Shown: positions 13,648 through 64,000, counted from the first letter of the stretch. The stretch is DNA of 64,000 nucleotides from Ignavibacteriota bacterium (GCA_016713565.1 JADJOX010000002.1:2845-66844); one strand, 5' to 3'. Program-made: numbers and translations. Notes: generated from the sequence alone by a model not told the origin.

Positions 13648-13653
13648 TAAAGT

Positions 13654-16331: not shown

Positions 16332-16618
16332 AAGATTGATTATCCAAAACATAGTGATTAGAAATGAGTACAAAGAAATTTAAAATGAAGAGTTATAAAA
16401 TTATTATTGGTAAATGAAACCCATGATTTTAAAAAAAAATATTAAAAATATTGGACAACTGGCGAATGTGGTCAAGTAAAGAGAATCAAAGGAAAGTATA
16501 ATAAAATAAGTTAAATAAGAACCTAAGAATTTCGAAAATAGTATTGATTTTTGCCGTATTAATAATTTATTTTGTATATAATATTTCTATATTAAAAAGT
16601 TAAAAATTAAAACCAAAA

Positions 16619-18531: not shown

Positions 18532-18638
18532 ACTAAAATTTTACAAAATTTATTTTATCTTTATATTTTAATATTTAATAACTGAATTATACTAATTATT
18601 AAATCAATTAAAAATTATCACAATTAAAACGGGAAATA

Positions 18639-20509: not shown

Positions 20510-20627
20510 AATAAAACAGATTTACACAATTTTATACATCTTTTTTATAAAAAATTATTATCTTTTCAAGTACATTATTCCAAAATATTAAAATAATTTA
20601 ACTCTAACTTATTATAGAAGTGATATT

Positions 20628-21071: not shown

Positions 21072-21162
21072 ACTGGTTCAGCATTGGGTTGTCATTGTTT
21101 TCTGCTCTAATTTCTTTAACCATTTTAGTACTTACGATACAAAAAATTAAAACAGAGACAAC

Positions 21163-31816: not shown

Positions 31817-31831
31817 CTTTCTGGGATTATT

Positions 31832-33904: not shown

Positions 33905-33945
33905 TATTTTACCCGAAAATTTTTTATAATCGAAAAGGTTTTACG

Positions 33946-35862: not shown

Positions 35863-35865
35863 TAA

Positions 35866-37140: not shown

Positions 37141-37161
37141 TTTTAAATCCAAAAGGTAAAA

Positions 37162-38855: not shown

Positions 38856-38889
38856 TTGATTTAACAGAACTATTCCGTGAACATGCATA

Positions 38890-39903: not shown

Positions 39904-39924
39904 TTAAATATTTAGGGAAAATTT

Positions 39925-41304: not shown

Positions 41305-41307
41305 AAT

Positions 41308-44457: not shown

Positions 44458-44487
44458 TAAAATTGTTATGAAATTAATGAGCAAAAA

Positions 44488-46770: not shown

Positions 46771-47917
46771 ATGAAGAATATTTTAATTTACATTTTACTT
46801 ACCGTATCATTTCAAAATTTTATGAAAGCACAGAATAACACACCAAATCCTAATGATACTTTAAGATCAATATTGGTTAATGACAATTCTTATGTTACAA
46901 TCAGCATCTATGCTCCCGAAGCAAAAAATGTTTCAATCGGGGGTGGAGATATTCCCGGAATTTATGAAAATGGAAAAATGAAAAGAAAAGAAAATGGTGT
47001 TTGGTCTTTAAATGTCGGACCAATTGCTCCGGGAGCATATAGATATAATTTTAATATTGACGGAGTAGTAGTAACGGACCCCAAAAATACCGAAACCAGC
47101 GAATCCAATATGAATATGTGGAGTTTGTTTTATGTAAGAGGTAAAGATTTTATGGATTGTAAAGATGTTCCGCATGGCGCGATTTCTGAAGTTAATTATT
47201 ATTCTATTACGCTGAATAAAAACCGAAGAATGCACATTTATACGCCGCCGGGATATGAAATTAGTAACATGGATTTTCCCGTTTTTTATCTTCTGCACGG
47301 AGCTTTTGATTGCGATGATTCTTGGACCACAGTTGGAAGAGCAGGTTTTATTATTGATAATTTAATTTTCGAAGGAAAGGTAAAACCTATGGTAATTGTT
47401 ATGCCGGCAGGACATACAAAACCTTTTCAATTTGGCGGAGCTGTACCCGAAAAAGATGAGTTTATTGAAGATTTCCTGAATGAAATAAAGCCGTATATTG
47501 AAAAAAATTTATAGAGTTATCAAAAACAGTCATAATACTGCAATTGCGGGGTTATCAATGGGCGGAGGTCATACATTAAATATCGCAATTCCAAATTTAG
47601 GCGATTATGGTTTTATTGGCGTTTTTAGCTCAGGTATTTTTGGGATTAACGGAGGAGATTCGTTTTTACCAAATATGGGTAACCAGTGGGAAAACAATAA
47701 CTTAAAGGTTTTAGATAATGCTAAACTTAAAGATAAAATTAAATTGATTTGGTTTGCGACCGGCAAAGACGACTTTCTTTTAGAAACTTCGCGTACAACT
47801 GTTAAAACACTTAGAAAACATAACTTTAATGTAATTTATAATGAAACCGAAGGCGGACATACTTGGACCAACTGGCGAGATTATTTATTCCAATTTTCTC
47901 AATTATTATTCAAGTAG
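46771..47917 (+). pseudogene. Secreted esterase of the 'putative esterase'/CE1-like family with N-terminal Ig-like module, one frameshift in an A7 run near 47503
   Basis: Signal peptide. GVWSLNVGPIAPGAYRYNFNIDG (E-set/CBM48-like), FPVFYLLHGAFDCDDSW, then (shift) NTAIAGLSMGG and GGHTWTNW. Confidence 0.7.
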
Positions 47918-48243: not shown

Positions 48244-49032
48244 ATGAAAAAATATTTATATCTACTTTTAACGCCTGAAGCGCTTATTGGTTCAATGCTC
48301 CCGCCTGATGAATTTGGTAATTACCTTGCAGTTGGAACGAAAAAAAGGAGCAGAGGACAGGCGATATTTTTTGAGGTTGACCCTGAATTAATGGACGGTA
48401 AATTCCCAAAAGAACGATGGGAAAATCAATGCGTTCCACATTCTGATGGAACACCTAAACGATCGCTTTATTTGTCAATTCATCGCGTTTTGGAAAACAT
48501 TCCGCTAAAAGCTTTAATGGATTTATACTTAGCTACTGATGACGGCAGAGTTTTAGGATTGAGTAAAAACGATTATAATCCTAATTTAGATACTGACAAA
48601 CTGCATTTATATCAGCAGCTTTGTCCGGTTACGCCAAGAATTGCAAGCAGTTTAAATCCGACAGAATTCATGAAAACTATTACTGATACAACACGGCCCG
48701 TATCAGTACCAAAATTAGTTTTTGTTGAATTACTTCTTAATGATCTTGCGAATGATCCTAAAAACGCGTCAATTGGAAATTTACCATATTCAAATATTGA
48801 CCATTTGAGAGATTGCCTCATAGGATTACAAAAAAATCCGGATAAACCGACAAAAACGGTTATCAGATTTTTCCAAAGTGACCTGCTTTACCGAACATGT
48901 AAAAACGGGTTTTTTGTAGGCAATAAGGATGAAATGTTGTACTATCATTTCCCAAGCTTGGAAGAATTGGAAGATAAACAGCATGCGTGGCTTCGTTCAG
49001 CTTTAACAATTGGTTTCAGAAGTACTATTTAA
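48244..49032 (+). CDS. Hypothetical protein (262 aa), no family recognised
   Basis: Intact ORF with normal amino-acid composition and AAAGGTG 5 nt upstream of the ATG. It ends 36 nt before the pyrophosphatase ATG. Confidence 0.5.
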   Translation: MKKYLYLLLTPEALIGSMLPPDEFGNYLAVGTKKRSRGQAIFFEVDPELMDGKFPKERWENQCVPHSDGTPKRSLYLSIHRVLENIPLKALMDLYLATDDGRVLGLSKNDYNPNLDTDKLHLYQQLCPVTPRIASSLNPTEFMKTITDTTRPVSVPKLVFVELLLNDLANDPKNASIGNLPYSNIDHLRDCLIGLQKNPDKPTKTVIRFFQSDLLYRTCKNGFFVGNKDEMLYYHFPSLEELEDKQHAWLRSALTIGFRSTI

Positions 49033-49068
49033 TTTACTATTAAAATTGATTTTTATTTGGAGATAATT

Positions 49069-51264
49069 ATGCATGATATTCTATTCTGGATTGTGCCTTT
49101 AGGTTCTATAGCAGCATTAATTTTTGCGAGAATATTCTTTAAACAAATGATGAAAGAAGATGAAGGTACGGATAAAATGAAAGAAATTGCACAATATGTT
49201 AGAAGCGGTGCAATGACTTACTTAAAGCAACAATATAAAGTTGTGGGTATTTTCTTTGTAATTATTACAATATTATTTGCAATTTTGGCGTATGGCTTTA
49301 ACTTGCAAAACCCATGGGTTCCTTTTGCGTTTATTACCGGCGGATTCTTTTCCGGGTTAGCCGGTTTTTTTGGAATGAAAACTGCGACCCACGCTGCGGC
49401 AAGGACCGCAAATGCTGCCAGAACTTCACTTAATAAAGGACTTGTAATTGCTTTTAGAAGCGGTGCTGTAATGGGTCTGGTAGTTGTTGGTTTAGGTTTA
49501 TTAGATATTTCAATATGGTTTATTATTTTAAATTATTTTTACCCGATTGTAATTGGAGATGGTCATAGTTTAATTGTTATTACCACTACAATGCTTACAT
49601 TCGGCATGGGTGCGTCAACTCAGGCTTTGTTTGCGAGAGTCGGCGGTGGAATTTATACAAAAGCTGCTGATGTTGGCGCCGATTTAGTTGGTAAAGTTGA
49701 AGCAGGTATACCTGAGGATGATCCAAGAAACCCGGCTACAATTGCAGATAACGTTGGCGATAATGTTGGTGACGTTGCCGGAATGGGCGCTGACCTTTAT
49801 GAATCATATTGCGGCTCAATTTTAGCAACCGCCGCGCTAGGGGCTTCAGCATTTTATAATGATACTGCTTTGCAATATAAGGCAGTAATTGCACCTATGC
49901 TTATTGCTTCAATAGGAATTGTATTATCACTTATAGGTATTTATTTTGTTAAAACAAAAGAAGGAGCTTCTCAAAAAGAATTGTTAAGTTCCTTATCTAA
50001 AGGTATGAACCTTAGTTCGGTGTTGATTGTAATATTTTCATTTATAATACTTAATTTGCTCCAATTAGATAACGCAATTGGAATTTGGGGTTCTATTGTT
50101 GTTGGTTTGGTAACGGGAATTGTAATTGGCAAGGCAACCGAATATTATACTTCTCAATCATATAAACCTACACAATCAATTGCGGAAAATGCAAAAACCG
50201 GACCAGCTACCGTAATAATTTCCGGTTTGGGAGTTGGAATGTTATCAACAGCTATACCTGTACTTTCCGTAGTTGTTGGAATTATACTTTCGTTCTTATT
50301 TGCATCCGGTTTTTCTTTCAGCAATATGGGAATGGGTTTATACGGAATTGGTATTGCTGCAGTTGGAATGCTTTCAACTTTGGGAATAACTCTTGCAACA
50401 GATGCTTATGGTCCAATTGCTGATAATGCAGGCGGAAATGCCGAAATGAGCGGATTAGGAAAAGAAGTAAGACAAAGAACAGATGCACTCGATTCTTTGG
50501 GAAATACCACAGCCGCAACAGGAAAAGGATTTGCAATTGGTTCTGCCGCTCTAACAGCATTAGCCTTACTAGCTTCATATATTGAAGAAATTAAAATAGG
50601 ATTGCACAGAATTGGCGTTGATATGCTTGACCTCGGCAACGGTGTGATTGTTGAAACCGCTAAAGCAACCTTGCAGGATTTTATGATATATTATGAAGTA
50701 AATTTGATGAATCCAAAAGTTTTAATTGGAATTTTTATTGGCTCAATGATGGCATTCGTTTTCTGCGGTTTGGCAATAAATGCTGTTGGAAGAGCCGCTT
50801 CCAAAATGGTTGATGAAGTTAGAAGGCAGTTTAAGGAATTACCGGGAATATTGGAAGGTAAGGCAAATCCTGATTACGCAAAATGTGTTGAAATCTCTAC
50901 AAAGGGCGCTCAAAAAGAAATGTTAGTTCCTTCTTTATTGGCAATTGTTGCACCAATAATAACTGGAATTATTTTTGGTGTTGCAGGTGTTATGGGTTTG
51001 TTGGTCGGTGGTTTAGGTACTGGTTTTGTCCTTGCAGTATTTATGGCAAATGCCGGCGGTGCTTGGGATAATGCTAAAAAATATATTGAAGAAGGCAACA
51101 TGGGCGGAAAAGGTTCTGCCGCTCATAAAGCCACCGTAATTGGTGATACTGTTGGTGATCCTTTTAAAGATACCGCCGGACCAAGTTTGAATATTTTAAT
51201 AAAATTGATGAGCATGGTCGCTATTGTTATGGCCGGATTAACGGTTGCGTTCAGTATTTTTTAA
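49069..51264 (+). CDS. hppA: Membrane-integral ion-translocating pyrophosphatase, K+-dependent sequence type
   Basis: [76 protein letters not shown] (Ala, not Lys, after GNTT) and [18 protein letters not shown] prefer the ATG at 49069 (GGAG upstream) over the TTG at 49057. Confidence 0.95.
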
Positions 51265-51286
51265 TATTTTGAGGATTGTTATTATT

Positions 51287-51320
51287 AACCCCAATTTTTT
51301 AATTGGGGTTTTTTATTTTT
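51287..51320 (+). terminator. Rho-independent terminator after the pyrophosphatase gene
   Basis: AACCCCAATT-tttt-AATTGGGGTT (perfect 10-bp stem) followed by ttttattttt. Confidence 0.85.
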
Positions 51321-51347
51321 AAACAAAATAAAATATCTAAACTAATT

Positions 51348-51986
51348 ATGAAATACACAGTCAAAAAAGTAAATGATCTGTTATTAAATGAATTTTTCAA
51401 TAATAATGAATTTGAATGCGATTCACTTAAAGTGAATAATTATTTGTGGAAAGAGAATAATTACAAGCCCGATGTTGAAGTAAAACTTTATTACTCAAAT
51501 GAAAATTTGTTAGTTCATTTTAGAGCTTTTGAAAAATATATTACAGCAAAATACTTAAATATTAATGACCCGGTTTATAAGGATAGCTGCGTGGAGTTTT
51601 TTGTAAATTTATTCCCAAATAAATCGGATGCATATTTCAATTTTGAAATAAACGCTATTGGTACAATTTACGCTGGTTTTGGCAATGTTAAGAACAATAC
51701 TTTTATCGACGTTAAAGATATTGAAACAATTAGAGTATTTTCAACAATAAAAGAACCGGTTGTCGGCGCAATTCAAAACGATAATTGGGAGATAAAATTA
51801 ATTATCCCGATTAAACTATTTGAAAAGTTCTACAATCTTAAATTTATGGCGAATAACGCCAAAGCAAATTTTTATAAATGCGGTGATGAATCACAGTTTG
51901 AACATTACGGATGCTGGAATCCAATAATTTCTTCATTCCCTAATTTCCATCTTCCGGAATATTTTGGTGATCTATTTTTTGAATAA
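51348..51986 (+). CDS. CBM9-like (carbohydrate-binding family 9-like / DOMON-like) protein, no signal peptide
   Basis: MKYTVKKV..., LLVHFRAFE, YKDSCVEFFVN, YFNFEINAIGT, ANFYKCGD and PNFHLPEYFG. The track ORF start at 51303 overlaps the terminator, so the ATG at 51348 is preferred. Confidence 0.6.
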   Translation: MKYTVKKVNDLLLNEFFNNNEFECDSLKVNNYLWKENNYKPDVEVKLYYSNENLLVHFRAFEKYITAKYLNINDPVYKDSCVEFFVNLFPNKSDAYFNFEINAIGTIYAGFGNVKNNTFIDVKDIETIRVFSTIKEPVVGAIQNDNWEIKLIIPIKLFEKFYNLKFMANNAKANFYKCGDESQFEHYGCWNPIISSFPNFHLPEYFGDLFFE

Positions 51987-52007
51987 ATCACCAATTAAAA
52001 ATTAACT

Positions 52008-55000
52008 TTATTTTTTTTCAAGCATTACAAATTTAGTTTCATAAGGTTTGAAGGTCAAACTATTTGAGTTTCCGATTTTATCACCAAGAACATTTACTTC
52101 ATAAACGCTGTAATTTGGATTATTTATAATATTATTCAATGAAATATCTCTAGATAATCCGTTTATTTCCTTTAAGTGTAGAATAACTTTTTGAGTAGAA
52201 ACAAAAGGCATTGCGGAAACTAAAATTACATTGTCGTCATTTAATGTTAATAATGACCGGCTGAAATTCTGATTGATCTGTTTTCCTTCAGGAAATACCC
52301 TTGCCGTAATTGGAATTTTTGATTCATATCCAAATCTGTAGCTTTTTTCATTTGTGTTGGTTTTGGCGGAAGTAATTGTGTAACTCCATTTAAATTCTCC
52401 ATCTTGACTTGCTCTAAAATTTGTTACCCAATAATTATTAAGAGGCCAAGAGAAAATATATGTGTTCTCTGGTTTTGCCACGTAATTAAATTCGCCAATA
52501 TTTAGTCCGCCTAAATGTACAAGAGGCATATCGTTGGAACTGAAAATAATTTGCGAATCATTATTTTTTACAGCTGCAAAATTTTGAATTACATTCCAAT
52601 CTGTTGATGTTCCGGGTATTTGATCTTTACCCGGTTCAACAATTCCGCCTTGAGCTTCAAAAGTAATTTTGGAATTTGGGAGCGAGAAAGGAAATGCAAC
52701 ATAAACTGCTTCAGGATCATGAACTGCTAATTTAACCATTCTGAAATTCAGATCTATTTTTTTCTCAAAGTTGTAAAGATTCAATTCAAGAACAATTTCA
52801 TCACTGCCGCAGCATTTTTCATTTTTTCCGGATAAAATAATACTATCCCAGACTTTGCCTTTTTTAATTCCTTTAAATTCTACATCGCTCAATGAGCTTC
52901 TGACCGGCTGATCATCTAATGTATATCTTTCAAGCTGATTTCTATTGGAAAGTTCTTCGTAAATAAATTGACCTAATTCCCATTTACTGTTTTGATCTAT
53001 AAGTTCTTGTTTTAGCTCTTTATCATAAATTGATTTGATTGCACCTACTTTTGTATCCAAAACAATTTTATAAAACTGATTTTCAAATTCGGTTTTATCC
53101 TTCTCAAAACCGGAGCTTTGCGTTATTTCATTTTCAACAATTATTTTATAAAGTTTGTATCCCATTGAAGGAATATTTTTTGCCCAAATACTCCAATAAG
53201 TTCCATCCTCTCTGTTTGATTGCTCTTGGGCGGAAACTTCATTACCGTCAAAATCCACAATTTTGAATTTTTTATTTCGCGGAATTATCTGATGATCAAT
53301 ATAAATTGTAGTTAATCCGGATCTTTCCCAATTTAGCGTATTGAATACGGCAATTGTCGGGGTCTCCGATTTTGGTAAATATTGTTGAATGAATCCGAGA
53401 GCTTTTTCTTTTAGCATTTTTGATCTTTTTACGGCATCCCAAACATATGCGGATTTAAGCTGCCACTGCACAATTGTATTCTCCGAATTAGGATTTCTAA
53501 TACTTTCATCGGCACCAAAAGTATGTTCGGCATAGAAGAATAAATTTTCCTCAATATCATTTATTTCTTTAATTACATCCTTCGGAATATTTGCGCCCAT
53601 CAACAATGCCATACTTAATAATCCTTTGTTGGCAATTAAATCGGCTTGAGTTCTTCTTGCTTCCATTGTTTCTCTTGCCGCGGAACCGAATCCATCTGCC
53701 CACCAATCGGGCCAAGCAGCTTTTTGAACAGGCAAAGAATTGCCGTATTTTTTTTCAATATTCTTTACAAATTCTGAAACGGTAGCCACCTTTAATTTCG
53801 GCCATTCATATTTTTCATTCCATTCCTTTGCAAGATTTGACGCCTTTAATGAAGGAGGAGAATTATCCGTTACATAACCTGACATTTGCAAATGTGCTTC
53901 ACTATAAGGATATCCGGCTTTGTTTAATTTTGATAAATACTGCATAAGATTTGTTTCAACAAATTCAATATTGCCGGTATGTGCGCCAACGAAATTTCCG
54001 GTCATATAATGATCTGCTCGATAGGCAAGAATTTTATTCCCTGATGGTGATTCCCACCAAAAGACAGTAGGATAATTAAAAGGAATTTTTGCTTTGTGTC
54101 CGTGTTCACCCATTACTAAATATTTAATTCCCGCGTTGTTCAAATAATCTGCGTAACACCAGCCGATTCCGTTTATATCGTCCTGCATTGCGGTTTTTAC
54201 GGTAAATCCTGAATCTGTAATTGTCTTTACCGGTTTAAGCATTGATGCCATTAAAGATTCATCCGGTATTTCCGAAATGTTAAACAGCATTGATGTTAAT
54301 TCAATTCTTCCTTCTTTAACTCTTTTTCTAAATCTATCAATTTGTGATTTTGGTCTGCTGTTTAAATATCTTAAAACAGGCCATGCGCTTTCACACGTCC
54401 ATCTGAATTTCGCGTCTTCTGGATAATTATCCGTTAAATCGCAAAAGTCGAGCGCGTAATCAATAAATCTTAAATGTTCTGGTAAAATTTCTGTTTGTGT
54501 TCTGGTGTAACCGATATCTGTGTGACTATGCATAACCAAATCAACAACCCACTCTTTAACCGGCTCAACCTTAAATGTTCTGGTAATTAATTGATTCCCG
54601 ATTTTAATATCAGTTTTAATTTCTTTTTGCACAAAGTCTTCCGGGATAACAATAGAGTATGAGTTAAAACCGGTTGAAATATTTGATTTAAGTTCGAATC
54701 CTGAATTTGTTGCAATTTCAATATTTTGAGGCTTATCCAAATGAACAATATTAAGTTTATACAAAATAGAATTTTTACCCTGGCCTTTTAAAACCAGATC
54801 GGTGGGAATAATTTCAATTTCGGATTTTACTTTGCCTTGAAATGTCATGTACCAGTCGGTACTTTCTGCGTCTTCTCCGGTAATTTTTATATTTGCGGGT
54901 TCACCTAATTTTAAGTCATTTTTTTGCACATTAAGGATCGCAATTCCCATAAGATCATTATATCTGTCCGTCATTGTAGCTTTGAATGTTATCTTTGAAT

Positions 55001-55391
55001 CATTGTGACCGTTAACATCCCATGAACCGGTTTTTGACCCAAGTTCATTTTTAAACATTAAATACGGAGTATTATTTATCCATAATTTAAAAGGATGTGT
55101 TACCGAATTTTGTGAAATTCCGAAGTACCAAATAAATGATACATATTCATTTTTAACACCCGCGGGAACAGGTTCAGTTTGCCATTCAATGACCGCTTCC
55201 TCTTTTTTTGCACGAACGAGAAGCGCTTGAGAAATATCAGGGTGAGGAGAGTGATACGCAAAATTTCCTCTTTGCAATACTTTGTCAAAACCTTGAATAA
55301 ATTTAGATTGATCTTCTTGAGCAAACAGAAAGACTCCAGAATAAAACGTTAGTAAAATTGCTAGAATTTCATAACAAAATTTTTTATTCAT
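52008..55391 (-). CDS. Secreted GH38-family alpha-mannosidase-like glycoside hydrolase
   Basis: Intact 1127-aa ORF with a signal peptide (…GVFLFAQED). VDLVMHSHTDIGYT (the GH38 metal/nucleophile-region motif in its HSHxDxGY variant), followed by a long beta-sandwich C-terminus. Confidence 0.7.
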   Translation of the reverse strand: MNKKFCYEILAILLTFYSGVFLFAQEDQSKFIQGFDKVLQRGNFAYHSPHPDISQALLVRAKKEEAVIEWQTEPVPAGVKNEYVSFIWYFGISQNSVTHPFKLWINNTPYLMFKNELGSKTGSWDVNGHNDSKITFKATMTDRYNDLMGIAILNVQKNDLKLGEPANIKITGEDAESTDWYMTFQGKVKSEIEIIPTDLVLKGQGKNSILYKLNIVHLDKPQNIEIATNSGFELKSNISTGFNSYSIVIPEDFVQKEIKTDIKIGNQLITRTFKVEPVKEWVVDLVMHSHTDIGYTRTQTEILPEHLRFIDYALDFCDLTDNYPEDAKFRWTCESAWPVLRYLNSRPKSQIDRFRKRVKEGRIELTSMLFNISEIPDESLMASMLKPVKTITDSGFTVKTAMQDDINGIGWCYADYLNNAGIKYLVMGEHGHKAKIPFNYPTVFWWESPSGNKILAYRADHYMTGNFVGAHTGNIEFVETNLMQYLSKLNKAGYPYSEAHLQMSGYVTDNSPPSLKASNLAKEWNEKYEWPKLKVATVSEFVKNIEKKYGNSLPVQKAAWPDWWADGFGSAARETMEARRTQADLIANKGLLSMALLMGANIPKDVIKEINDIEENLFFYAEHTFGADESIRNPNSENTIVQWQLKSAYVWDAVKRSKMLKEKALGFIQQYLPKSETPTIAVFNTLNWERSGLTTIYIDHQIIPRNKKFKIVDFDGNEVSAQEQSNREDGTYWSIWAKNIPSMGYKLYKIIVENEITQSSGFEKDKTEFENQFYKIVLDTKVGAIKSIYDKELKQELIDQNSKWELGQFIYEELSNRNQLERYTLDDQPVRSSLSDVEFKGIKKGKVWDSIILSGKNEKCCGSDEIVLELNLYNFEKKIDLNFRMVKLAVHDPEAVYVAFPFSLPNSKITFEAQGGIVEPGKDQIPGTSTDWNVIQNFAAVKNNDSQIIFSSNDMPLVHLGGLNIGEFNYVAKPENTYIFSWPLNNYWVTNFRASQDGEFKWSYTITSAKTNTNEKSYRFGYESKIPITARVFPEGKQINQNFSRSLLTLNDDNVILVSAMPFVSTQKVILHLKEINGLSRDISLNNIINNPNYSVYEVNVLGDKIGNSNSLTFKPYETKFVMLEKK

Positions 55392-55596: not shown

Positions 55597-56031
55597 ATGT
55601 TAAAAAATATTCCTCCGATTATTAGTCCGGATCTGATTAAAATTTTAAGCGAAATGGGACATGGCGATGAAATTGTTATTGCTGACGGAAATTTTCCGGC
55701 TGCATCAAAAGCAAAAAGACTTATTAGGATGGATGGTCATAACGCTTGCGAAATTTTAACCGCTATTTTGAAATTTTTCCCTTTAGATAAATATGTTTCG
55801 AATCCTGTCAGTTTAATGCAAGTTGTAAAAGGCGACACTGTAGTTCCGACAATTTGGAATGAATTCGAGATCATTATAAAAGAAAGCGGAGAATATTTTA
55901 ATGGTTTTGAATACTTGGAAAAGCCTGAATTTTATGAAAGATCTGAAAAAGCTTACGCTGTTATTGCATCCAGCGAAAAAGCACTTTATGCAAATATTAT
56001 TCTCAAAAAAGGCGTAATTGTTATTCAATAA
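55597..56031 (+). CDS. fucU: L-fucose mutarotase (RbsD/FucU family)
   Basis: 144 aa. MLKNIPPIISPDLIKILSEMGHGDEIVIADGNFPA...FYERSEKAYAVI...YANIILKKGV is colinear with E. coli FucU. Confidence 0.9.
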   Translation: MLKNIPPIISPDLIKILSEMGHGDEIVIADGNFPAASKAKRLIRMDGHNACEILTAILKFFPLDKYVSNPVSLMQVVKGDTVVPTIWNEFEIIIKESGEYFNGFEYLEKPEFYERSEKAYAVIASSEKALYANIILKKGVIVIQ

Positions 56032-56109
56032 TAATTTTATTTAATTAAATTTAACTTGCTCATCTCAATAATTATGGATTGAAATTCACAATTTGCAAAT
56101 TTTACTTTT

Positions 56110-56802
56110 ATGAACGTGACGAGAGAAGAATTTATTAAAATTATTGTTGATAAAGTTTTGGCAAAGCTTGCCGAAAACAAAGAATTTTTGCAGAAAGATA
56201 TCTCAGATGAAAACGGAATTTGGAAATTTGATCAGACTTTGTTTACATTTTCCGATGCTCAAAATATTAAAAGTAAGCATTGTAATAAAGTAATTTTTTC
56301 GCCCAAAACTATTATTACACCTTTGGCTCATGATTTTCTAATAGGGGAAAACATTCATATAGAAAAATTAACTGTATCATCGAATTTAATGCATGAAGCA
56401 ATATCGGCAGAAACTTCCAAAAAAATTGCGATTCTCTGTAATGAAAACGATATAGTTTATAAGAATAAAACCAAAGAGATATTGCTTAAATTGGGTATTG
56501 AATGTGAATGGAAAAATCCTAAAAATAATTATTTCTATGAATTTGAAAATTGTTTATTGGATTTGGCTAAGAAAACTGAATCTGGAAAATATCATTCGGC
56601 AATAATTATAAATAATGAAGCTTTTAAACTTCGTAAAATTTTACAGAATAATAATTCTCTTAACGGTCAAATTTGCTGGGAAATTAATAGCAGTAAAGTT
56701 TGCAATATTAAGTCGAAATATTTATTTATAAATAGTGCCTTGTTAGGTTTTAACATGTTGGAAAGTAAAATTGATAGCTGGATTAAATTAAACCAAAATT
56801 AA
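56110..56802 (+). CDS. Hypothetical 230-aa protein with an N-terminal encapsulation-peptide-like helix; candidate microcompartment-associated protein
   Basis: Intact ORF in the operon. The N-terminus is TREEFIKIIVDKVLAKLAE. A middle segment reads KVIFSPKTIITPLAHDFLIGENIHI. By eye, the C-terminal half (KKIAILCNEND...GIECEW...YHSAIIINNEAF...LGFNMLESKIDSWI) is colinear with the RpiB/LacAB fold but lacks the CGTG-type catalytic motif. Confidence 0.5.
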   Translation: MNVTREEFIKIIVDKVLAKLAENKEFLQKDISDENGIWKFDQTLFTFSDAQNIKSKHCNKVIFSPKTIITPLAHDFLIGENIHIEKLTVSSNLMHEAISAETSKKIAILCNENDIVYKNKTKEILLKLGIECEWKNPKNNYFYEFENCLLDLAKKTESGKYHSAIIINNEAFKLRKILQNNNSLNGQICWEINSSKVCNIKSKYLFINSALLGFNMLESKIDSWIKLNQN

Positions 56803-56820
56803 AATTTCCGGAGAAATTAA

Positions 56821-58236
56821 TTGTCGAATATTGACAGAATACATATAAAAAAATTAGTTGCAGAAGTCATAAACGAATTAGAAATAAGCGGTAATTATAA
56901 TTTAAAAAACTCGTCTGATGGAATTTATGAACATGTCGATGACGCCGTATATCAATCCAAAATAGCGCAAAAAAAATGGGTTAAAGTATCAACGGATGTA
57001 AAGAAAAAGATAATTTCCGAATTAAGAAAAACTATGCATGCATTTGCCGAAGATTTTTCTAAGAGAGCCCATGAAGAAACCGGAATGGGCAGAGTTCAAG
57101 ATAAAATTGCAAAACATCATAATGCAGCCGATTCAACTCCCGGAATGGAAGATTTAGAAACAAGATCATGGACAGGTTCCAAAGGTACCGTTATTGAAGA
57201 AAGAGCGCCATACGGAGTAATTGCCGGAATCACTCCTTCAACACATCCAATTCCGGTATTATTAAATAGTATAATAATTACAATCGCAGGCGGAAACAGT
57301 GTTATTTTTAGTGTTCATCCAGCAGCAAAAAAAGTATCGGCTTACGCAATACCGATTTTTCACAAAGTAATTGTTGAAAATGGCGGACCTGAAAATTTAA
57401 TTACTATGATCAAAGAACCGACTTTGGAAAATGTTAACAGATTATTCAATCACAACGATATTGATCTGATAGTTGCTACAGGCGGACCAGCAGTAGTTGA
57501 GGCCGCTTTCAAAGCGGGGAAAAAAGTTGTTGCGGCTGGACCGGGAAATCCACCAGTACTGGTTGATAGATCCGCAAATTTGAATAATGCCGCAAAGAGT
57601 TTGATAACCGGAGCTTCTTTCGATAACAATATTTTATGTATTGCGGAAAAGGAAACATTTGTTGTAAAAGACGTTTTTGATGATTTTGTTCAAGCTATGA
57701 AAAATAACGGCGCGGTTTGTTTAAATTCTGCTCAAATTGAAATGTTGACCAAAAAAGCAATTGTTCAAAATGATAAAGGACATTATCTGGGAACGCGTGA
57801 ATTTATTGGTAAAAATGCAAGTGTCTTGGCTTCCGCGTGCGGCATAAATTTATCTGAGAATGTAAGATTATTGTTTGGCGAAGTAAATGAAAATCATCCG
57901 TTTGTTGTTGCGGAACAAATGATGCCGTTTATGCCGATTGTTAAAGTCAATTCTTTTGAAGACGGAATGATAAAGTGCAAAATAGCCGAACACGGTTTTG
58001 GACATACAGCGGTTATTCATTCAAATGATATTCAGAATATTACAAAATTTACTCAAGAAATGGACACAAGTATTGTTATTGTTAACGGTCCTTCTTTAGC
58101 GGGAAATGGACCAAATGCAGGTGAAGGCTATTTCTCGCACACAATTGCCAGTCCTACCGGTGAAGGAGTTTGTACTCCCAAAGATTTTACAAGAGTTAGA
58201 AGAATAGCAATTTCAAATGCATTAAAAATTGTATAA
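56821..58236 (+). CDS. CoA-acylating aldehyde dehydrogenase (PduP/EutE family), TTG start, N-terminal encapsulation-peptide-like helix
   Basis: GMGRVQDKIAKH, ITPSTHPIPVLLNSIIITIAGGNSVIFSVHPAAKK, GGPAVV, AAGPGNPPVLVD, the FDNNILCIAEKE catalytic-Cys motif and TIASPTGEGV are colinear with E. coli EutE. The N-terminus is DRIHIKKLVAEVINEL. Confidence 0.9.
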   Translation: MSNIDRIHIKKLVAEVINELEISGNYNLKNSSDGIYEHVDDAVYQSKIAQKKWVKVSTDVKKKIISELRKTMHAFAEDFSKRAHEETGMGRVQDKIAKHHNAADSTPGMEDLETRSWTGSKGTVIEERAPYGVIAGITPSTHPIPVLLNSIIITIAGGNSVIFSVHPAAKKVSAYAIPIFHKVIVENGGPENLITMIKEPTLENVNRLFNHNDIDLIVATGGPAVVEAAFKAGKKVVAAGPGNPPVLVDRSANLNNAAKSLITGASFDNNILCIAEKETFVVKDVFDDFVQAMKNNGAVCLNSAQIEMLTKKAIVQNDKGHYLGTREFIGKNASVLASACGINLSENVRLLFGEVNENHPFVVAEQMMPFMPIVKVNSFEDGMIKCKIAEHGFGHTAVIHSNDIQNITKFTQEMDTSIVIVNGPSLAGNGPNAGEGYFSHTIASPTGEGVCTPKDFTRVRRIAISNALKIV

Positions 58237-58259
58237 CAAAATAAATAAGGAGAAAAAAA

Positions 58260-58538
58260 ATGAAATTAGAAGCATTAGGCATGATTGAAACAAAAGGATT
58301 AGTTGGCGCAATAGAAGCAGCGGACGCCATGGTTAAAGCCGCAAATGTTAGTTTATTGGGAAAAGAAACAATTGGCGGCGGTTACGTAACCGTAATGGTT
58401 AGAGGAGATGTAGGCGCAGTAAAAGCTGCTACAGATGCTGGCGCTTCAGCCGCTCAAAGAGTTGGAGAACTTGTTTCAGTCCATGTAATACCAAGACCAC
58501 ATTCTGATGTAGAAACAATTTTGCCAAACACTAAATAG
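58260..58538 (+). CDS. Bacterial microcompartment shell protein, BMC-H (PduA/EutM-like hexamer subunit)
   Basis: 92 aa. [57 protein letters not shown]...VHVIPRPH is the canonical single BMC (PF00936-type) domain. Confidence 0.95.
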
Positions 58539-58560
58539 GTAAACTTAAGGAGAAACTGAT

Positions 58561-59367
58561 ATGAGTTATAATTTAATTACCCTGAAAAATCAAATTGTTG
58601 AAGTGGGTAAGAGGATGTATGACAGAGGTTATGTTGCGTCAAATGATGGAAATATCAGTGCAAAAGTTGATAATGAAAGGGTGGTTATAACTCCAACAGG
58701 AGTTAGTAAAGGTTATTTAACTCCCGACATGATGGTAGTTGTAGATATGAATGGAAAAGTAATAAATGGAAACGGAAAAGCTTCGTCTGAAGTTTTTATG
58801 CATTTACAAGTTTATAGAGACAGACCTGATGTTGGAAGCGTATGTCATTCACATCCTCCTTATGCTACAGGTTATGCCGTTGCGGGAATTCCACTTGATA
58901 AATGCGTACTTCCTGAAGTGATTATTGCTCTAGGAAATATTCCAATTGTTGCTTATGGTACACCCGGAACTGATGAATTTTATAAACCGGTTGTTCCGTT
59001 GCTTAAAGACTATGACGCGTTTTTATTGGCAAATCATGGTGCGTTGACAGTAGGCAAAGATGTTTTAAGCGCCTATCATAAAATGGAAACCTTAGAACAT
59101 TTTGCGCATATCGCTTTTGTAGCTCAACAGGTTGGAAGCATTAATACTTTAAATAAAGATCAAGTTAAAAAGTTGACTGATCAAAGAGAAAAATATGGAG
59201 TTAGAACAACTGCCGGATGCGTAACTTGCGAAACCGAAGGTACTTGTGATATTCACGACGGAAAAAGCAATTCATCTAAATTTGAATTTAATAGTTTGTC
59301 TTTAAGTGAAAAAGATCAACTTATAAATGAAATTACTGACGCGATTCTGAAAAGATTAAATAAGTAG
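58561..59367 (+). CDS. Class II aldolase (L-fuculose-/rhamnulose-1-phosphate aldolase family) with a C-terminal extension of about 55 aa
   Basis: NDGNISAK, VITPTGVSKG, SSEVFMHLQVY, VCHSHPPYAT and LANHGALTVG. The extension reads TTAGCVTCETEGTCDIHDG...SEKDQLINEITDAILKRLNK. Confidence 0.85.
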   Translation: MSYNLITLKNQIVEVGKRMYDRGYVASNDGNISAKVDNERVVITPTGVSKGYLTPDMMVVVDMNGKVINGNGKASSEVFMHLQVYRDRPDVGSVCHSHPPYATGYAVAGIPLDKCVLPEVIIALGNIPIVAYGTPGTDEFYKPVVPLLKDYDAFLLANHGALTVGKDVLSAYHKMETLEHFAHIAFVAQQVGSINTLNKDQVKKLTDQREKYGVRTTAGCVTCETEGTCDIHDGKSNSSKFEFNSLSLSEKDQLINEITDAILKRLNK

Positions 59368-59375
59368 GAAAATCT

Positions 59376-60569
59376 ATGAAAATTGTTGTTTGCAATGTGG
59401 GTTCTACGAGTTTAAAATTCCAACTTCTTCAAATGGAAAATGAACAGCAGCTTGCAAAAGGTTATATTGAAAGAGTAGGTGAAGAAAATGCAATTGTAAA
59501 TTTTTGGATTGGCGAACAGAAAGTATTCCAGAAAAATTTGAATATACCTTCACTTAAAGACGCTGTCAAATTATCAATTGAATTTTTATCTGATGAAAAA
59601 AATAATTTAATAAAAGATTTCAGTGAAATTGACGGAATTGGATTTAAAACAATTCAAGCCGGCGATAAAAACGGCTCGGTAATTTTGGATGATGAAGTTT
59701 TAGCCGCAATGAAAAATTATTCGTCATTGGCTCCCGCGCATAATCCTCCGTATTTAGAAGCCATTTATATGTTTAAAGAATTGCTGCCGAATACAAATTT
59801 AGTTGGTGTATTTGAACCCGGATTTCATGTCGATATTCCCGATTACGCAAAAGTATACGGAGTTCCCTACGAATGGATTGAAAAATACGGCGTTGTAAAA
59901 TATGGTTATCATGGAGCTTCGCATAGATTTGTAACATTTGAGACGGTTAAAGTTTTAAATCTTGATCCCAAAAATCATAAAGTAATTTCGGTTCATTTAG
60001 GCGGATCCTCATCGCTTTGTGCGTTTAAAAATGGAATATCTATAGATACTTCAATGGGATTTACTCCGCAGACCGGTTTGATCCAAGGAACAAGAATTGG
60101 AGATATAGATCCGTTCGTATTTCCTTATATAATGGAAAAGAAAAAAATTACATTAGATGAAGCTTTAAAAGAATGTTCAAAAAACGGCGGACTTAAAGGG
60201 CTTTCCGGAATTTCGGCTGATATGAGAGAAATTAAAGACGCGGTAGAAAAAAATGATCCTAAAGCAATTCTTGCCAGAAATAAATTTATTTACGATATTA
60301 AAAGATATATTGGCGAGTATATTATTTTAATGGAAGGAATTGACGCCATTACTTTTACAGGCGGAATTGGTCAAAAAGATTGGCAGCTTCGAGAGGAAGT
60401 TTTAAATTCATTGCAATTTTTAGGATTTAAGCTAAATCAAGAATCAAACAAAGAAAATAAAACAACTATAAGTGCCGATGATTCAAAATTTTATTCATTA
60501 GTTTTGGAAACAAATGAAGAATTAGTAGTTGCGAGAGAAACACAAAAAGTAGTTTTACAAAAATCATAA
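59376..60569 (+). CDS. ackA: Acetate (acyl-phosphate) kinase
   Basis: 397 aa. MKIVVCNVGSTSLKFQL, APAHNPP, YGYHGASH, HLGGSSSLCAFKNG, DTSMGFTP and FTGGIG. Confidence 0.9.
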   Translation: MKIVVCNVGSTSLKFQLLQMENEQQLAKGYIERVGEENAIVNFWIGEQKVFQKNLNIPSLKDAVKLSIEFLSDEKNNLIKDFSEIDGIGFKTIQAGDKNGSVILDDEVLAAMKNYSSLAPAHNPPYLEAIYMFKELLPNTNLVGVFEPGFHVDIPDYAKVYGVPYEWIEKYGVVKYGYHGASHRFVTFETVKVLNLDPKNHKVISVHLGGSSSLCAFKNGISIDTSMGFTPQTGLIQGTRIGDIDPFVFPYIMEKKKITLDEALKECSKNGGLKGLSGISADMREIKDAVEKNDPKAILARNKFIYDIKRYIGEYIILMEGIDAITFTGGIGQKDWQLREEVLNSLQFLGFKLNQESNKENKTTISADDSKFYSLVLETNEELVVARETQKVVLQKS

Positions 60570-60602
60570 ATAAATAATTTTAAATAAATTTTAGTCTTCT
60601 GA

Positions 60603-61331
60603 ATGCAAGTAGCTTTATTTATTCCTTGTTTAAATGAGCACATTTACCCGAGCGCGGCAATTTCAATGGTAAAAGTTTTAAACTATTTTAAAGTTAATAC
60701 AATTTACGTTGATGATCAAACTTGCTGCGGACAACCGGCTTTCAATTCAGGATACCAAAGTGAAATTATTCCGCTCGCTGAGAGATTCATTAAATTATTT
60801 GCTGATTATGATTATGTTATTGCTCCTTCAGGTTCATGCGTAGCCATGGTAAAAAATCATTACAAAGAAATTCCAATTGATAACTCGCTTAACGAAAAAT
60901 ACAATAGCCTCAGAAATAAAATTTATGAATTCACGGAATTTTTAATAAAAGTTTTGAACATCACTTCAATTGATGCTCAGTTTAAACATAAAGTTACTTT
61001 TCACGATTCATGCCACGCGTTAAGGGAACTCAAGATTTCAAGTGAACCGAGAAAGATATTAAATATGATTAAAGATTTGGAATTAGTTGAAATGTTGGAT
61101 TCCGACGTATGCTGCGGATTTGGCGGAACTTTTTCGTATAAATATGAAGATGTTTCCGTTGCAATGGTTGAAAGAAAATGCAGTAATATCCTTAATACAA
61201 AAGCAGAATATTGTGTAGGTCTTGATTCAAGCTGTTTAATGAATATTGACGGTTATGTTAAAAAAAATAAACTAAACGTTAAAGTTATTCACATAGCAGA
61301 TCTATTGTGTCAAAGTTTAGGAATTTTATAA
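60603..61331 (+). CDS. lutA: Lactate utilization protein A ((Fe-S)-binding, two CCG domains)
   Basis: 242 aa. VALFIPCL, TCCGQPAFNSGY, FHDSCHALR and VCCGFGGTF. Confidence 0.85.
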   Translation: MQVALFIPCLNEHIYPSAAISMVKVLNYFKVNTIYVDDQTCCGQPAFNSGYQSEIIPLAERFIKLFADYDYVIAPSGSCVAMVKNHYKEIPIDNSLNEKYNSLRNKIYEFTEFLIKVLNITSIDAQFKHKVTFHDSCHALRELKISSEPRKILNMIKDLELVEMLDSDVCCGFGGTFSYKYEDVSVAMVERKCSNILNTKAEYCVGLDSSCLMNIDGYVKKNKLNVKVIHIADLLCQSLGIL

Positions 61332-61334
61332 ATA

Positions 61335-62738
61335 TTGTCTACAGATAAAATAAATATTAAAGATCATATAATTGAAGCGCTTAGCGATGCCGATTTAAGA
61401 AAGGCGGTATATAAAGCAACCGCGTCCACTTCTGTTAGCAGATTAAACACGACTGAGGCAATTCCTTATTGGGAAGAATGCCGAGTTAAAACACATTGTA
61501 TTAAAAAAGATGTTATTGAAAATCTTGATAAATATTTAGAGCTCTTTGAAAAAAACGCGAAGAATAACGGAATTAACATTCATTGGGCAATAGACGGAAA
61601 TGATGCTAAAAATATTCTCAGCGAAATAGCGAAAAAAAATAATGTTAAAACTATTGTAAAATCAAAATCATTAACGACAGAAGAAATTCACCTAAATGAA
61701 TTTTTAATCGGTAATAATATTGATACCGTTGAAACAGATCTTGGTGAATATATTGTTCAGCTTAATGATCAAGTACCCTCACATTTGGTTGCACCTGCTT
61801 TGCATCTAAGCAGAACGGACATTGGAAAATTATTTAAGGACAAACTTAACGTTCCTTTTACCGATGTACCGGAAGAACTTTTACTTATTGCCAGAAAAAA
61901 ATTAAGAGAGAAATTCCTCAGCGCGGAAATGAGTATTACAGGAGTGAACTTCGCGTTTGCCGAAAACGGATCATTTTGTGTGGTTGAAAATGAAGCTAAC
62001 GCTCATTTGAGTTTAAGTTTGCCGCAAGTTCATGTCGCCGTAATGGGAATTGAAAAATTGCTGCCCAGCATTGATGAACTTCCGTATTTCTTAAAACTTC
62101 TTGCGCCAAGCGCTACCGGACAAAAATCATCATCTTATGTAAATTTTATAGGCGGACCAAGTTTGCAAAAGTATAACGAAGGTCCTAAAGAAGTTCACGT
62201 AATTTTATTAGATAACGGAAGATCAAAAATTCTTGCTGATCCTAAATTAAGAGAGACATTATATTGCATAAGATGCGGAGCTTGTTTAAATGTATGTCCG
62301 GTTTATCAGCAAATTGGCGGTCATGCTTATGATTGGACTTACATGGGTCCAATAGGAATTACACTTATTCCCCAGTATTTAGGTGAAATTGAAGGAAAAG
62401 ACGCGCCGTTTTTATCGAGTCTTTGCGGCGCTTGCGCCGATGTTTGTCCAGTTAAAATTAAACTCCCTCAACATATTTTGGAATTAAGAAAAAATGTCGT
62501 TCAAAAAAATAAATCTAAAATTTTTGAAAAATTTGCGATGAAGACTTGGATCGCGGTTTCAACTCATCCAAAACTTTACAGATTATTTAGTTGGAAAATT
62601 AAAAAATTGCAGAGCTTTATACCCGTTGAATATCTCAAATTACCGGGATATCATAAAAAGAGAAGTTTCCCCGGAATTGATAAAAAGGGATTTAGAGAAC
62701 AATATTATCAAATGAAAAAAAATAATAATGAGCAGTAG
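61335..62738 (+). CDS. lutB: Lactate utilization protein B (4Fe-4S ferredoxin-type subunit), TTG start
   Basis: 467 aa with a LUD-type N-terminal domain. CIRCGACLNVCPVY and CGACADVCPVKI are the two Cys clusters. Confidence 0.85.
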   Translation: MSTDKINIKDHIIEALSDADLRKAVYKATASTSVSRLNTTEAIPYWEECRVKTHCIKKDVIENLDKYLELFEKNAKNNGINIHWAIDGNDAKNILSEIAKKNNVKTIVKSKSLTTEEIHLNEFLIGNNIDTVETDLGEYIVQLNDQVPSHLVAPALHLSRTDIGKLFKDKLNVPFTDVPEELLLIARKKLREKFLSAEMSITGVNFAFAENGSFCVVENEANAHLSLSLPQVHVAVMGIEKLLPSIDELPYFLKLLAPSATGQKSSSYVNFIGGPSLQKYNEGPKEVHVILLDNGRSKILADPKLRETLYCIRCGACLNVCPVYQQIGGHAYDWTYMGPIGITLIPQYLGEIEGKDAPFLSSLCGACADVCPVKIKLPQHILELRKNVVQKNKSKIFEKFAMKTWIAVSTHPKLYRLFSWKIKKLQSFIPVEYLKLPGYHKKRSFPGIDKKGFREQYYQMKKNNNEQ

Positions 62739-63408
62739 AGAAAAAATATTATCGCAAGTTAAATCCGCGTTGCGGACAAAATCTCATGAAGAAGAAAGCA
62801 AAATCACTATTGATGAACTGCTGAAATCAAAAATTAATTTAACTGTTAAAACTAATAAAAATGATTTAATCTCTCAATTTCAAACTGAAATAAAAAAAGT
62901 AAATGGAGATTCTATTGTTGTTAAAAGTAATTTGGAAGCATCAAATAAAATAAATGAAATATTAATTGAAGCTAAAGAAAATCAAATCGCAATAACCGAT
63001 CAAAATATTTGCACTGAAGTAAGATTAAATATACAAAAAGGTAATTCCAATCTTCAATTTATAATCGCTAATAACTTGGATTCTAAAGAACGTAAAGAAA
63101 AAATCAGTCAATTGAAAACGGCAATTGTGCAAGCCGATTATGCGGTTTCTGAAATTGCACAATTAGTATTTTTATACGACAATTCAAAAACCAGCTATCC
63201 GCATTTTCTTTGCGATTTTGTAATTGCGTTGGTTAAAGTTAGTAATTTAATGCCTAATCAATTTACACTATTTGAAAAAATTGACAAAGTAAAAGCATTA
63301 AATATGGTACTTGTCACCGGACCAAGCCGCACCGCGGATATTGAAAAAGTTTTGGTACTTGGAGCGCATGGTCCAAGAAAATTGATTGTAATTCTAATTG
63401 ATGAATAA
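62728..63408 (+). CDS. lutC: Lactate utilization protein C (LUD domain)
   Basis: 226 aa. It overlaps lutB by 11 nt. The size and position fit the third lut gene, and it carries ...AIVQADYAVSEIAQLV...VTGPSRTADIEKVLVLGAHGP. Confidence 0.7.
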   Translation: MSSREKILSQVKSALRTKSHEEESKITIDELLKSKINLTVKTNKNDLISQFQTEIKKVNGDSIVVKSNLEASNKINEILIEAKENQIAITDQNICTEVRLNIQKGNSNLQFIIANNLDSKERKEKISQLKTAIVQADYAVSEIAQLVFLYDNSKTSYPHFLCDFVIALVKVSNLMPNQFTLFEKIDKVKALNMVLVTGPSRTADIEKVLVLGAHGPRKLIVILIDE

Positions 63409-63439
63409 AAAAAATTTACAATAAAGATTTGAGTAATTG

Positions 63440-64000
63440 ATGAAAGAAAAAAAATTCTTAGCCATTGATTTTGGTGCCGAAAGCGGCAGGGCAATAGTTG
63501 GAATTTTAAAGAATAATAAAATAAGTTTAGTAGAGGTACATCGATTCCCGAATAAACCGGTAAATGTTCTTGGCTCACTTAACTGGAACATTTTAGATTT
63601 ATTCGACGAGTTGAAAAATGGAATTTTAAAAGCTGTTCAAAATGGGCATGATGATATTAAAAGCATTGCGGTCGATACTTGGGGAGTCGATTTTGGTTTA
63701 TTGTCAAAAGATGATCATTTAATTGGATTTCCTTTTGCTTATCGAGATGCAAGAACCAACGGCATGTTGGAAAAGGCATTTAAACTTATGCCTAAAAATG
63801 AAATATATGATTATACCGGGATTCAGTTCATGCAAATAAATTCGGCGTTTCAATTGTTAAGCATGAAATTAAAAAAAGACACACAATTAAAAGCTGCGGA
63901 TAAACTTTTATTTATGCCGGATCTTTTTAACTTTTTACTTACAGGTAAGAAAAAATCTGAATATACAATTTCTTCAACCTCGCAATTACTGAATGCGAAA
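63440..64000 (+). CDS. rhaB: Rhamnulokinase (FGGY carbohydrate kinase), 5' part; runs off the window end
   Basis: My own translation: MKEKKFLAIDFGAESGRAIVG...FPNKPV...WNILDLFDELKNGI...IAVDTWGVDFGLL...FAYRDARTNGM...YTGIQFMQINSAFQL.... Open to position 64000. It is not in the ORF track because no stop codon lies in the window. Confidence 0.8.
   Translation, partial: MKEKKFLAIDFGAESGRAIVGILKNNKISLVEVHRFPNKPVNVLGSLNWNILDLFDELKNGILKAVQNGHDDIKSIAVDTWGVDFGLLSKDDHLIGFPFAYRDARTNGMLEKAFKLMPKNEIYDYTGIQFMQINSAFQLLSMKLKKDTQLKAADKLLFMPDLFNFLLTGKKKSEYTISSTSQLLNAK

Follow-up and report, generated by a model that had tools for sequence, protein, structure and literature searches.

A putative lactaldehyde-type microcompartment operon in a Melioribacteraceae clade that has lost its vertex-protein genes and keeps a constrained hexamer and predicted encapsulation helices

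How can an operon that carries a shell hexamer and a set of metabolosome enzymes lack every gene for the vertex proteins of the shell? The question is raised by a 64,000-nucleotide stretch of DNA from an Ignavibacteriota bacterium (GCA_016713565.1 JADJOX010000002.1:2845-66844; hereafter the window), which ends in ten open reading frames (ORFs) on the plus strand (55597–64000). In order, these encode FucU, a 230-aa protein, a CoA-acylating aldehyde dehydrogenase (AldDH), a bacterial microcompartment (BMC) hexamer protein (BMC-H), a class II aldolase, the acetate kinase AckA, the three subunits of LutABC and a rhamnulokinase-like kinase. An earlier description made from the sequence (the original prediction) had seen here a fucose/rhamnose-type operon with a single shell gene. 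Our reading, to which we give a probability of roughly 0.55, is that the operon supplies the cargo and main facet protein of an aldolase-type (PVM-like/MIC4-like) metabolosome, which would process the lactaldehyde of fucose and/or rhamnose in a clade of Melioribacteraceae. The genes for the vertex pentamers (BMC-P) were lost from the operon in this clade, while the hexamer and the helices predicted to target its cargo stayed under purifying selection.

The loss became apparent by comparison with related loci (numbered with the prefix L), which were gathered by a metagenome scan with the aldolase (61 loci) and from the contexts of BMC-H relatives. Those with the AldDH, BMC-H, aldolase and AckA core, enough upstream sequence and a place outside the window clade served as comparators (n=11). 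Three adjacent BMC-P genes lie directly upstream in all 11 (L013, L016, L018, L025, L028, L029, L031, L036, L039, L041 and L072), and Pfam models confirm the assignments of PF03319 in L013 and of PduL (PF06130) in L025, L036 and L041. In the closest sister loci, L013 and L072 (BMC-H 90–93% and aldolase 80–82% identical), the order is an aldo-keto reductase (AKR), a Zn-dependent alcohol dehydrogenase (Zn-ADH), fucU, P1, P2, P3, a 237–239-aa homologue of the 230-aa protein, AldDH and the rest. The window clade has had the triplet cleanly deleted between fucU and the 230-aa gene, leaving 57–78 nt there, and is also without the AKR and ADH genes of these two loci. Because every comparator outside the clade has the triplet upstream of AldDH, the absence of BMC-P is, on the evidence of gene order, a clade-specific loss from an ancestor in which the triplet separated fucU from the 230-aa gene. 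The sister loci thus give substance to the 'reduced or variant architecture' that the original prediction had offered as one option.

We also determined which components are encoded within the window. Hidden Markov models (HMMs) for BMC, BMC-P, PduL and FucI were built from real sister-locus sequences and run without filters against the 478 six-frame ORFs of at least 40 aa in the whole 64 kb. Exactly one BMC domain was found (E 4e-52). The BMC-P and FucI models returned noise only (best E 0.45 for BMC-P), and the best PduL match had an E of 4.6. BMC-P was likewise without a match in L001–L005 and L076, searched with 9–12 real BMC-P sequences and the HMM; a scan with EutN, PduN and CcmL sequences, a weak query set, was also negative. 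Neither Pta nor an alcohol dehydrogenase for NAD+ recycling occurs among the annotated ORFs of the window, and no homologue of the sister-locus AKR and Zn-ADH was found there, small ORFs not having been exhaustively scanned for other ADH families. With one BMC domain only, the window holds no PduS/PduT pair, and a tandem-BMC gene (BMC-T) is absent from L002–L005 as well. Hence one hexamer gene, no pentamer, no phosphotransacylase (PTAC) and, at the locus and within that limit on small ORFs, no lactaldehyde reductase, all as the original prediction had stated. It had counted BMC-T among the missing parts too; the gene is indeed absent, but it is not an expected part and its absence is no anomaly in aldolase-type BMCs, because none of the 11 comparator cores has a tandem BMC gene.

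Six assemblies (the window, L002, L003, L004, L005 and L076), representing four lineages, have this architecture in common; the nearest relatives are metagenome-assembled genomes labelled Melioribacteraceae or Ignavibacteriae. L002 is 99.5% identical to the window in DNA, L003 lies on a 4.5-Mb contig and L004/L005 on a 4.3-Mb contig; across the four lineages the 230-aa protein is 53–59% identical. The shared order starts with an oppositely oriented GH38 gene; the operon itself opens with fucU in all window-type loci and continues with the 230-aa gene, AldDH, BMC-H, aldolase, ackA, lutABC and the kinase. An assembly artefact was considered and rejected, since the six assemblies, drawn from four lineages, are in agreement and a comparison of the window with L002 shows no indel inside the operon; nor is the gene order an accident of assembly, because it is repeated in L002, L003, L004, L005 and L076. 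In the relatives, the kinase is followed by a gene for a LacI-family regulator and then one for FucP, the L-fucose:H+ symporter (TIGR00885, 597 bits), which refutes the option that the missing parts lie just downstream. In L003, a genuine L-fucose isomerase gene (fucI) is inserted between ackA and lutA (14505–17073).

Gene content also differs in detail elsewhere among the related loci. The fucU of L072 (6475–6907) is split into two ORFs (80 + 70 aa), in a locus that keeps the triplet and lacks lutABC, and the lutA of L003 has one frameshift, with reading continued in a second frame. The related metagenome loci L017, L020, L023, L033, L034 and L047 have the aldolase immediately after AldDH, without an intervening BMC-H, and L017, with the order ackA, AldDH, aldolase, has no shell gene in 14 kb. 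Shell-gene content therefore varies in other branches too.

Within the triplet-less clade, BMC-H is 95–96% identical in amino-acid sequence, with a pN of 0.031–0.043 against a pS of 0.54–0.63, the lowest ratio in the operon; synonymous divergence is near saturation and the ratios are therefore approximate. The gene is intact in six of six assemblies. Three of the operon's proteins moreover carry amphipathic terminal helices, which we predict from their sequences to be encapsulation peptides (EPs). That of AldDH is N-terminal (approximately residues 4–20; nt 56830–56880, plus strand), its motif IDRxxIxKLVxxxIxEL being kept in the window, L003, L004, L013 and L072. That of the aldolase lies in a C-terminal extension behind a variable linker (residues 249–266; nt 59305–59358, plus strand) and has the motif EKxxLxNEITDAILxxL, conserved in the clade. 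The predicted peptide of the 230-aa protein (REEFIKIIVDKVLAKLAE; 56122–56175, plus strand) forms a helix (residues 5–22) followed by a low-confidence linker in the AlphaFold (AF2) model, and its N-terminal motif REEFIKxIxxKVxxxL is conserved across the clade. An N-terminal EP has been reported on the AldDh of MIC4 loci, and C-terminal EPs on pfam00596 aldolases have been described for the MUF2, MUF3 and ACI types (Sutter et al. 2021). Judged by these substitution patterns, selection on the shell and its targeting system continued after the operon had lost its pentamer genes.

These results bear directly on whether the BMC-H is a degenerating remnant of an organelle since lost, with the enzymes now free in the cytosol. 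Such reductive evolution would fit the disappearance of the AKR and ADH genes, the BMC-P triplet and, in all but L003, FucI. A relic, however, should hardly be intact in six assemblies, 95–96% identical and under the strongest constraint in the operon, with EP extensions still present on three proteins. We consider it very improbable that the BMC-H is a relic, because it is the most constrained gene of the operon and is accompanied by three conserved EP-like helices; the original prediction had listed this alternative, and the low pN, the intact gene and the retained extensions disfavour it.

What would the compartment do? Fucose would be taken up by FucP, encoded just past the end of the window in relatives, and anomerised by FucU. 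Isomerisation would fall to FucI, which is encoded in L003, L013, L016, L018 and L072 and not in the window, and phosphorylation to the RhaB-like kinase. In the compartment, the EP-tagged aldolase would cleave the ketose-1-phosphate to dihydroxyacetone phosphate and L-lactaldehyde, and the EP-tagged AldDH would convert lactaldehyde to lactyl-CoA; a PTAC not encoded in the operon would then form lactyl-phosphate, from which AckA would yield lactate and ATP, and LutABC would take lactate on to pyruvate. The 230-aa protein may be targeted to the lumen and act there, much like PduM, as a structural or organising factor on the scaffold of a catalytically dead RpiB fold. With the BMC-P triplet deleted, vertex proteins would be supplied in trans from scattered shell-only loci of the FRAG1 type. 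The gene content fits the PVM-type enzyme logic put forward in the original prediction, from aldolase and acylating AldDH through an acyl-phosphate and AckA to LutABC acting on lactate. A link between LutABC and rhamnulokinase beside a fucose/rhamnose metabolosome is known in Verrucomicrobiota (PMC11596606), and the coupling of lutABC and the kinase to a metabolosome is not unique to the window, because it recurs in L013, L016 and L018.

Supply in trans is the source of the missing vertex proteins that we favour, at somewhat better than even odds, because shell-only FRAG1 loci with BMC-P triplets, dispersed over the genome, are a known feature of Ignavibacteria. FRAG1 loci hold a BMC-P triplet, a standard BMC-H, a C-terminally extended BMC-H and often PduS/T; they are spread over as many as six sites and are "most prominent in Ignavibacteria" (Sutter et al. 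2021). Melioribacter roseus has seven BMC-P genes over five loci, a second locus is believed to complete a PVM-like locus of S. usitatus that lacks BMC-P, and some satellite loci arise by fission (Axen et al. 2014). Searching through BMC-H, we found a pair of FRAG1-type BMC-H and extended BMC-H genes between relA-ruvX and ybbR-tmk-ctpB in three Melioribacteraceae lineages, and two of three RelA-anchored loci picked regardless of their BMC content also had the pair. Several points weigh against this reading. The pair was missing from the syntenic site in one of the three genomes so sampled. No BMC-P gene surfaced from genomes with a window-type locus, which were not scanned whole. A second BMC-H from the 4.3- and 4.5-Mb contigs was absent among the best 120 BMC-H matches, which did include FRAG1-type BMC-H of other lineages; this is weak evidence, and none appeared either among the members listed for 10 BMC-H clusters, 40 per cluster. 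No enzymes or EPs have been linked to FRAG1 (Sutter et al. 2021). Finally, the operon is without a PTAC and an NAD+-recycling dehydrogenase, and FucI is not encoded in the window.

The competing view that takes these absences at face value is a compartment or scaffold naturally free of pentamers, in which BMC-H, EP-tagged cargo and the PduM-like protein assemble into open-vertex ('wiffleball'-like) shells, tubes or sheets. NAD(H), CoA and lactyl-CoA would then exchange freely with the cytosol, and an internal PTAC or alcohol dehydrogenase would not be needed. It would explain why BMC-P, PduL and AKR/ADH are all absent from an operon whose BMC-H and EPs are nonetheless strongly constrained, and why neither BMC-P nor a second BMC-H surfaced from window-type genomes, for which no whole-genome scan was made. 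Precedents exist: synthetic shells form without BMC-P, leaving 6-nm gaps and allowing free exchange (PMC8872734), and simulations without pentamers give cargo-closed or cylindrical assemblies (PMC8155464). The absence of PduL and ADH is, however, not tied to pentamer loss, because the triplet-bearing L013, L072, L016 and L018 likewise have neither PduL nor an encapsulated ADH, and scattered BMC-P genes are the norm in this phylum. We therefore hold a pentamer-free assembly to be unlikely, and doubt somewhat more strongly still that the clade has no pentamer genes anywhere and runs a natural open-vertex or sheet/tube metabolosome with one BMC-H and free cofactor exchange.

The FRAG1-type pairs were observed in L006–L010, L074/L075, L078 and L079, at about 10000–11000 or at 8700–9800, always between relA-ruvX and ybbR-tmk-ctpB. 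The BMC-H has 92–94 aa and the extended BMC-H 196–279 aa. The extension is highly variable and acidic, and closes with a conserved end of about 45 aa (LNVHELRxLAR..FPIxGRxISRAxR).

The 230-aa protein (56110–56802, plus strand), an unknown in the original prediction, emerges as BMC-specific, combining an RpiB-like domain with a PduM-like module. Behind the N-terminal helix (residues 5–22), its AF2 model (pLDDT 77.7) has a small alpha/beta module (residues 37–86) that contains an invariant TIITPLAxD motif, and a disordered linker leading to a Rossmann-like domain (residues 104–229). The last is a degenerate RpiB/LacAB-fold domain (Foldseek E 5e-5; TM 0.67–0.79, target-normalised). In the N-terminal module, TIGR02536 ('eut_hyp') matches five of seven clade members (best E 2e-8; NCBIfam, relaxed thresholds) and the PduM model TIGR04493 matches five of seven weakly (E 0.03–0.05, below the cut-off, C-terminal motif only), both at the C-terminal ends of those models. 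The protein itself has no PF02502 match in Pfam even at E ≤ 10, and a six-sequence profile, which is shallow, found no match among PDB sequences. In the wider family, PF02502 matches 29 of 35 aligned members (best E 2.6e-47) and PF15953, which a BMC catalogue table equates with PduM, 10 of 35; a profile of the 35 members matches RpiB crystal structures at an E of 1e-19. The family is rare, with 64 relatives in an exhaustive HMM search of 1.84 billion representatives, about 40 of them full-length two-domain proteins.

The catalytic apparatus of RpiB is gone from the domain. N or S stands in place of Cys66 and E or D in place of Thr68, and the alignment has a gap at His99 and no Arg133/Arg137 tail; the catalytic Cys-Gly-Thr reads D-E-N in the family generally and NNE, SND, SSE or SAN in the window clade. 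These positions come from profile alignment to 3ph3 and 3he8, which agrees with alignment to E. coli RpiB (numbering consistent). Cys66 is kept in none of the 35 family representatives, most of which have D-E-N there. This pattern suggests that the family as a whole either performs another chemistry or is not catalytic.

What might such a protein do? Its gene sits between the BMC-P triplet and AldDH, the slot that holds an EP-tagged PduL in GC-rich relatives (L025, L036 and L041), and PduL and the 230-aa protein never occur together in one locus; L016 and L018 have neither. A divergent PduL was considered and rejected on account of a different fold and the negative PduL HMM. A non-homologous replacement of PduL, or some other cofactor-recycling enzyme in place of a structural factor, would account for the exact slot and the mutual exclusion, for an N-terminal EP like that of PduL, and for polar residues that are invariant in the clade at the ligand-site positions of the fold (N111, E191, N208, S209 and C189). 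This nevertheless seems improbable to us: the 230-aa protein lacks the phosphate-binding tail and the Cys, Thr and His that RpiB uses in catalysis, the window clade lacks even the D-E-N motif of the family, L016 and L018 manage without either protein, the N-terminal module resembles the structural protein PduM, and the protein evolves faster than the enzymes of the operon (pN/pS 0.13–0.30). By analogy with PduM, we infer a lumen-targeted organiser on a dead-enzyme scaffold. PduM, a structural protein of the Pdu microcompartment (MCP) whose loss partly separates core from shell (PMC12108088), shares with it the N-terminal signal helix and the C-terminal-type PduM motif, but has no RpiB domain. 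The pfam02502 RpiB-like enzymes of SPU-type BMCs share the RpiB fold, whereas the 230-aa protein is without the catalytic residues and its host locus is of the aldolase type.

How should the locus be classified? The original prediction had matched its enzyme logic to PVM; the closest catalogued types are instead the MIC4/PVM-like loci, which include Ignavibacteria, and 'satellite-like' loci. MIC4 (Sutter et al. 2021), which includes Melioribacter roseus, is the 'PVM-like' type of Axen et al. 2014. Like MIC4, the window operon occurs in Ignavibacteria and encodes an AldDh with N-terminal EP, a pfam00596 aldolase and a pfam00871 acetate kinase; one standard BMC-H on its own is found in some MIC4 loci too. 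The PTAC, BMC-P triplet and PduS/PduT pair of the MIC4 operon are all absent from the window operon, which instead adds the PduM-like/RpiB-like protein, fucU, lutABC and the kinase. PVM (Erbilgin et al. 2014), as summarised by Axen et al. 2014, has the same chemistry for L-fucose and L-rhamnose, with a class II aldolase releasing lactaldehyde, an acylating AldDH and an acetate kinase, all three of which the window encodes. As that summary describes them, PVM loci of Planctomycetes and Verrucomicrobia belong to another phylum and have another gene order; relatives of the window have a LacI-family regulator, and the window has no BMC-P gene.

Under the definition of a BMC 'main locus' (Sutter et al. 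2021), the window has the BMC-H (58260–58538) but no BMC-P in the same locus, and of the metabolosome core it has the acylating AldDH and predicted EPs but neither PTAC nor alcohol dehydrogenase. Loci with an 'incomplete core' are a known category, and satellite-like loci are those with either PF00936 or PF03319 genes, never both, beside BMC enzyme genes (Axen et al. 2014). The window, with PF00936 only, no PF03319, adjoining BMC enzymes and no PTAC or alcohol dehydrogenase, matches these definitions exactly. What sets it apart is that this BMC-P-less locus itself carries the complete enzyme set and the main hexamer, and that comparison with sister loci dates the loss to one clade. By gene content and published definitions, the locus is thus both satellite-like and a metabolosome locus with incomplete core. 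It would work like MIC4 or PVM but is not filed as a member of either, because their defining shell, PTAC and PduS/T features are lacking. FRAG1, found in the same phylum, is its opposite: scattered loci without enzymes or EPs that supply BMC-P triplets and standard and extended BMC-H, the pair of which is seen in related Melioribacteraceae. The two are linked here by phylum and family.

The gene identities, assigned with Pfam and NCBIfam models, place all ten ORFs where the original prediction had them, with its spacing of −11 to 78 nt (successive gaps of 78, 18, 23, 22, 8, 33, 3, −11 and 31 nt). FucU (55597–56031, 144 aa) is L-fucose mutarotase-like (PF05025, E 3e-42) and scores 126 bits against NF011949, L-fucose mutarotase, slightly below the cut-off of 141. 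The 230-aa protein has no Pfam match by itself. AldDH (56821–58236, 471 aa) is of the EutE/PduP type (NF011927, 557 bits; cut-off 403). The single BMC-H (58260–58538, 92 aa) is EutM/PduA-like (PF00936, E 1e-30), exceeds the EutM cut-off (NF012018, 138.5 against 133 bits) and has the KAAN and PRPH interface motifs. The aldolase (58561–59367, 268 aa), the signature enzyme, matches PF00596 over residues 11–185 (E 1.5e-51), and the acetate/propionate-family kinase AckA (59376–60569, 397 aa) matches PF00871 (E 7e-111) and TIGR00016 (370 bits; cut-off 293). The subunits of the L-lactate oxidase complex follow: lutA (60603–61331) with two stretches of the CCG domain (PF02754, E 1e-31), lutB (61335–62738) with LUD and 4Fe-4S domains (TIGR00273, 476 bits; cut-off 445), and lutC (62728–63408) with a LUD domain (PF02589, E 9e-20). 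The last gene (63440–64000) is the 5′ part of an FGGY kinase cut by the end of the window; its first 186 aa match TIGR02627 (E 1.6e-53). It had been called a rhamnulokinase, and rhamnulokinase-like it is, but the full-length orthologue in L001 falls below the TIGR02627 cut-off (510 against 528 bits) and scores 140 bits as fuculokinase. A scan of the operon for promoters and terminators gave the same counts as shuffled sequence. The G+C content of the window is 24–35%.

Upstream of the operon, a block of synteny is common to the window-type clade (window 48244–55391; L002–L004 and L076), comprising genes for a 262-aa protein without a Pfam match, an H+-pyrophosphatase, a CBM9 protein and the divergent GH38 alpha-mannosidase. 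The window and L002 differ by three single-base indels only (46376, 47508 and 51341), all in homopolymer runs and none in the BMC operon. Two of them shorten a MalK-like ABC ATPase (45654–46382; 242 instead of 367 aa) and a CBM48 esterase (46771–47514; 247 instead of 381 aa), which are either sequencing errors or fresh pseudogenes. Further upstream, a glycan-utilisation cluster (29438–45618) encodes a GH94 phosphorylase, a GH2 enzyme, two PF10091 'glycoamylase' proteins, a solute-binding protein, two ABC permeases, a LacI regulator and F5/8-type-C proteins. The cluster resembles a system for beta-glucan, possibly beta-1,2-glucan or sophoro-oligosaccharides. One of its PF10091 proteins (33946–35862) has a Por_Secre_tail sorting domain, confirming cargo of the type IX secretion system (T9SS) in what the original prediction had called a T9SS lineage. 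A capsule/polysaccharide-synthesis region (4432–22478) contains Polysacc_synt_2, epimerases and two Wzi-like proteins; of the Polysacc_synt_2 genes, one is broken into a pair of ORFs (16619–17845 and 17851–18531).

Three aspects of these results are new: a clade-specific loss of the triplet with hexamer and EPs still constrained, a PduM-like/RpiB-like protein family that alternates with PduL, and a possible connection of this cargo operon with the FRAG1 shells. FRAG1 loci are abundant in Ignavibacteria and have no known cargo or function; if our reading is right, an enzyme-complete, EP-tagged operon without pentamers would be a candidate partner for them. PduM is said to have no homologues outside Pdu MCPs, and a rare BMC-specific family that joins a PduM-like module to a dead RpiB fold would connect it to a wider set of BMC organisers. 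Sister lineages that have the same operon with and without the BMC-P triplet would amount to a datable natural experiment. Such operons would allow the sharing of vertex proteins in trans between BMC systems, or their dispensability, to be tested directly.

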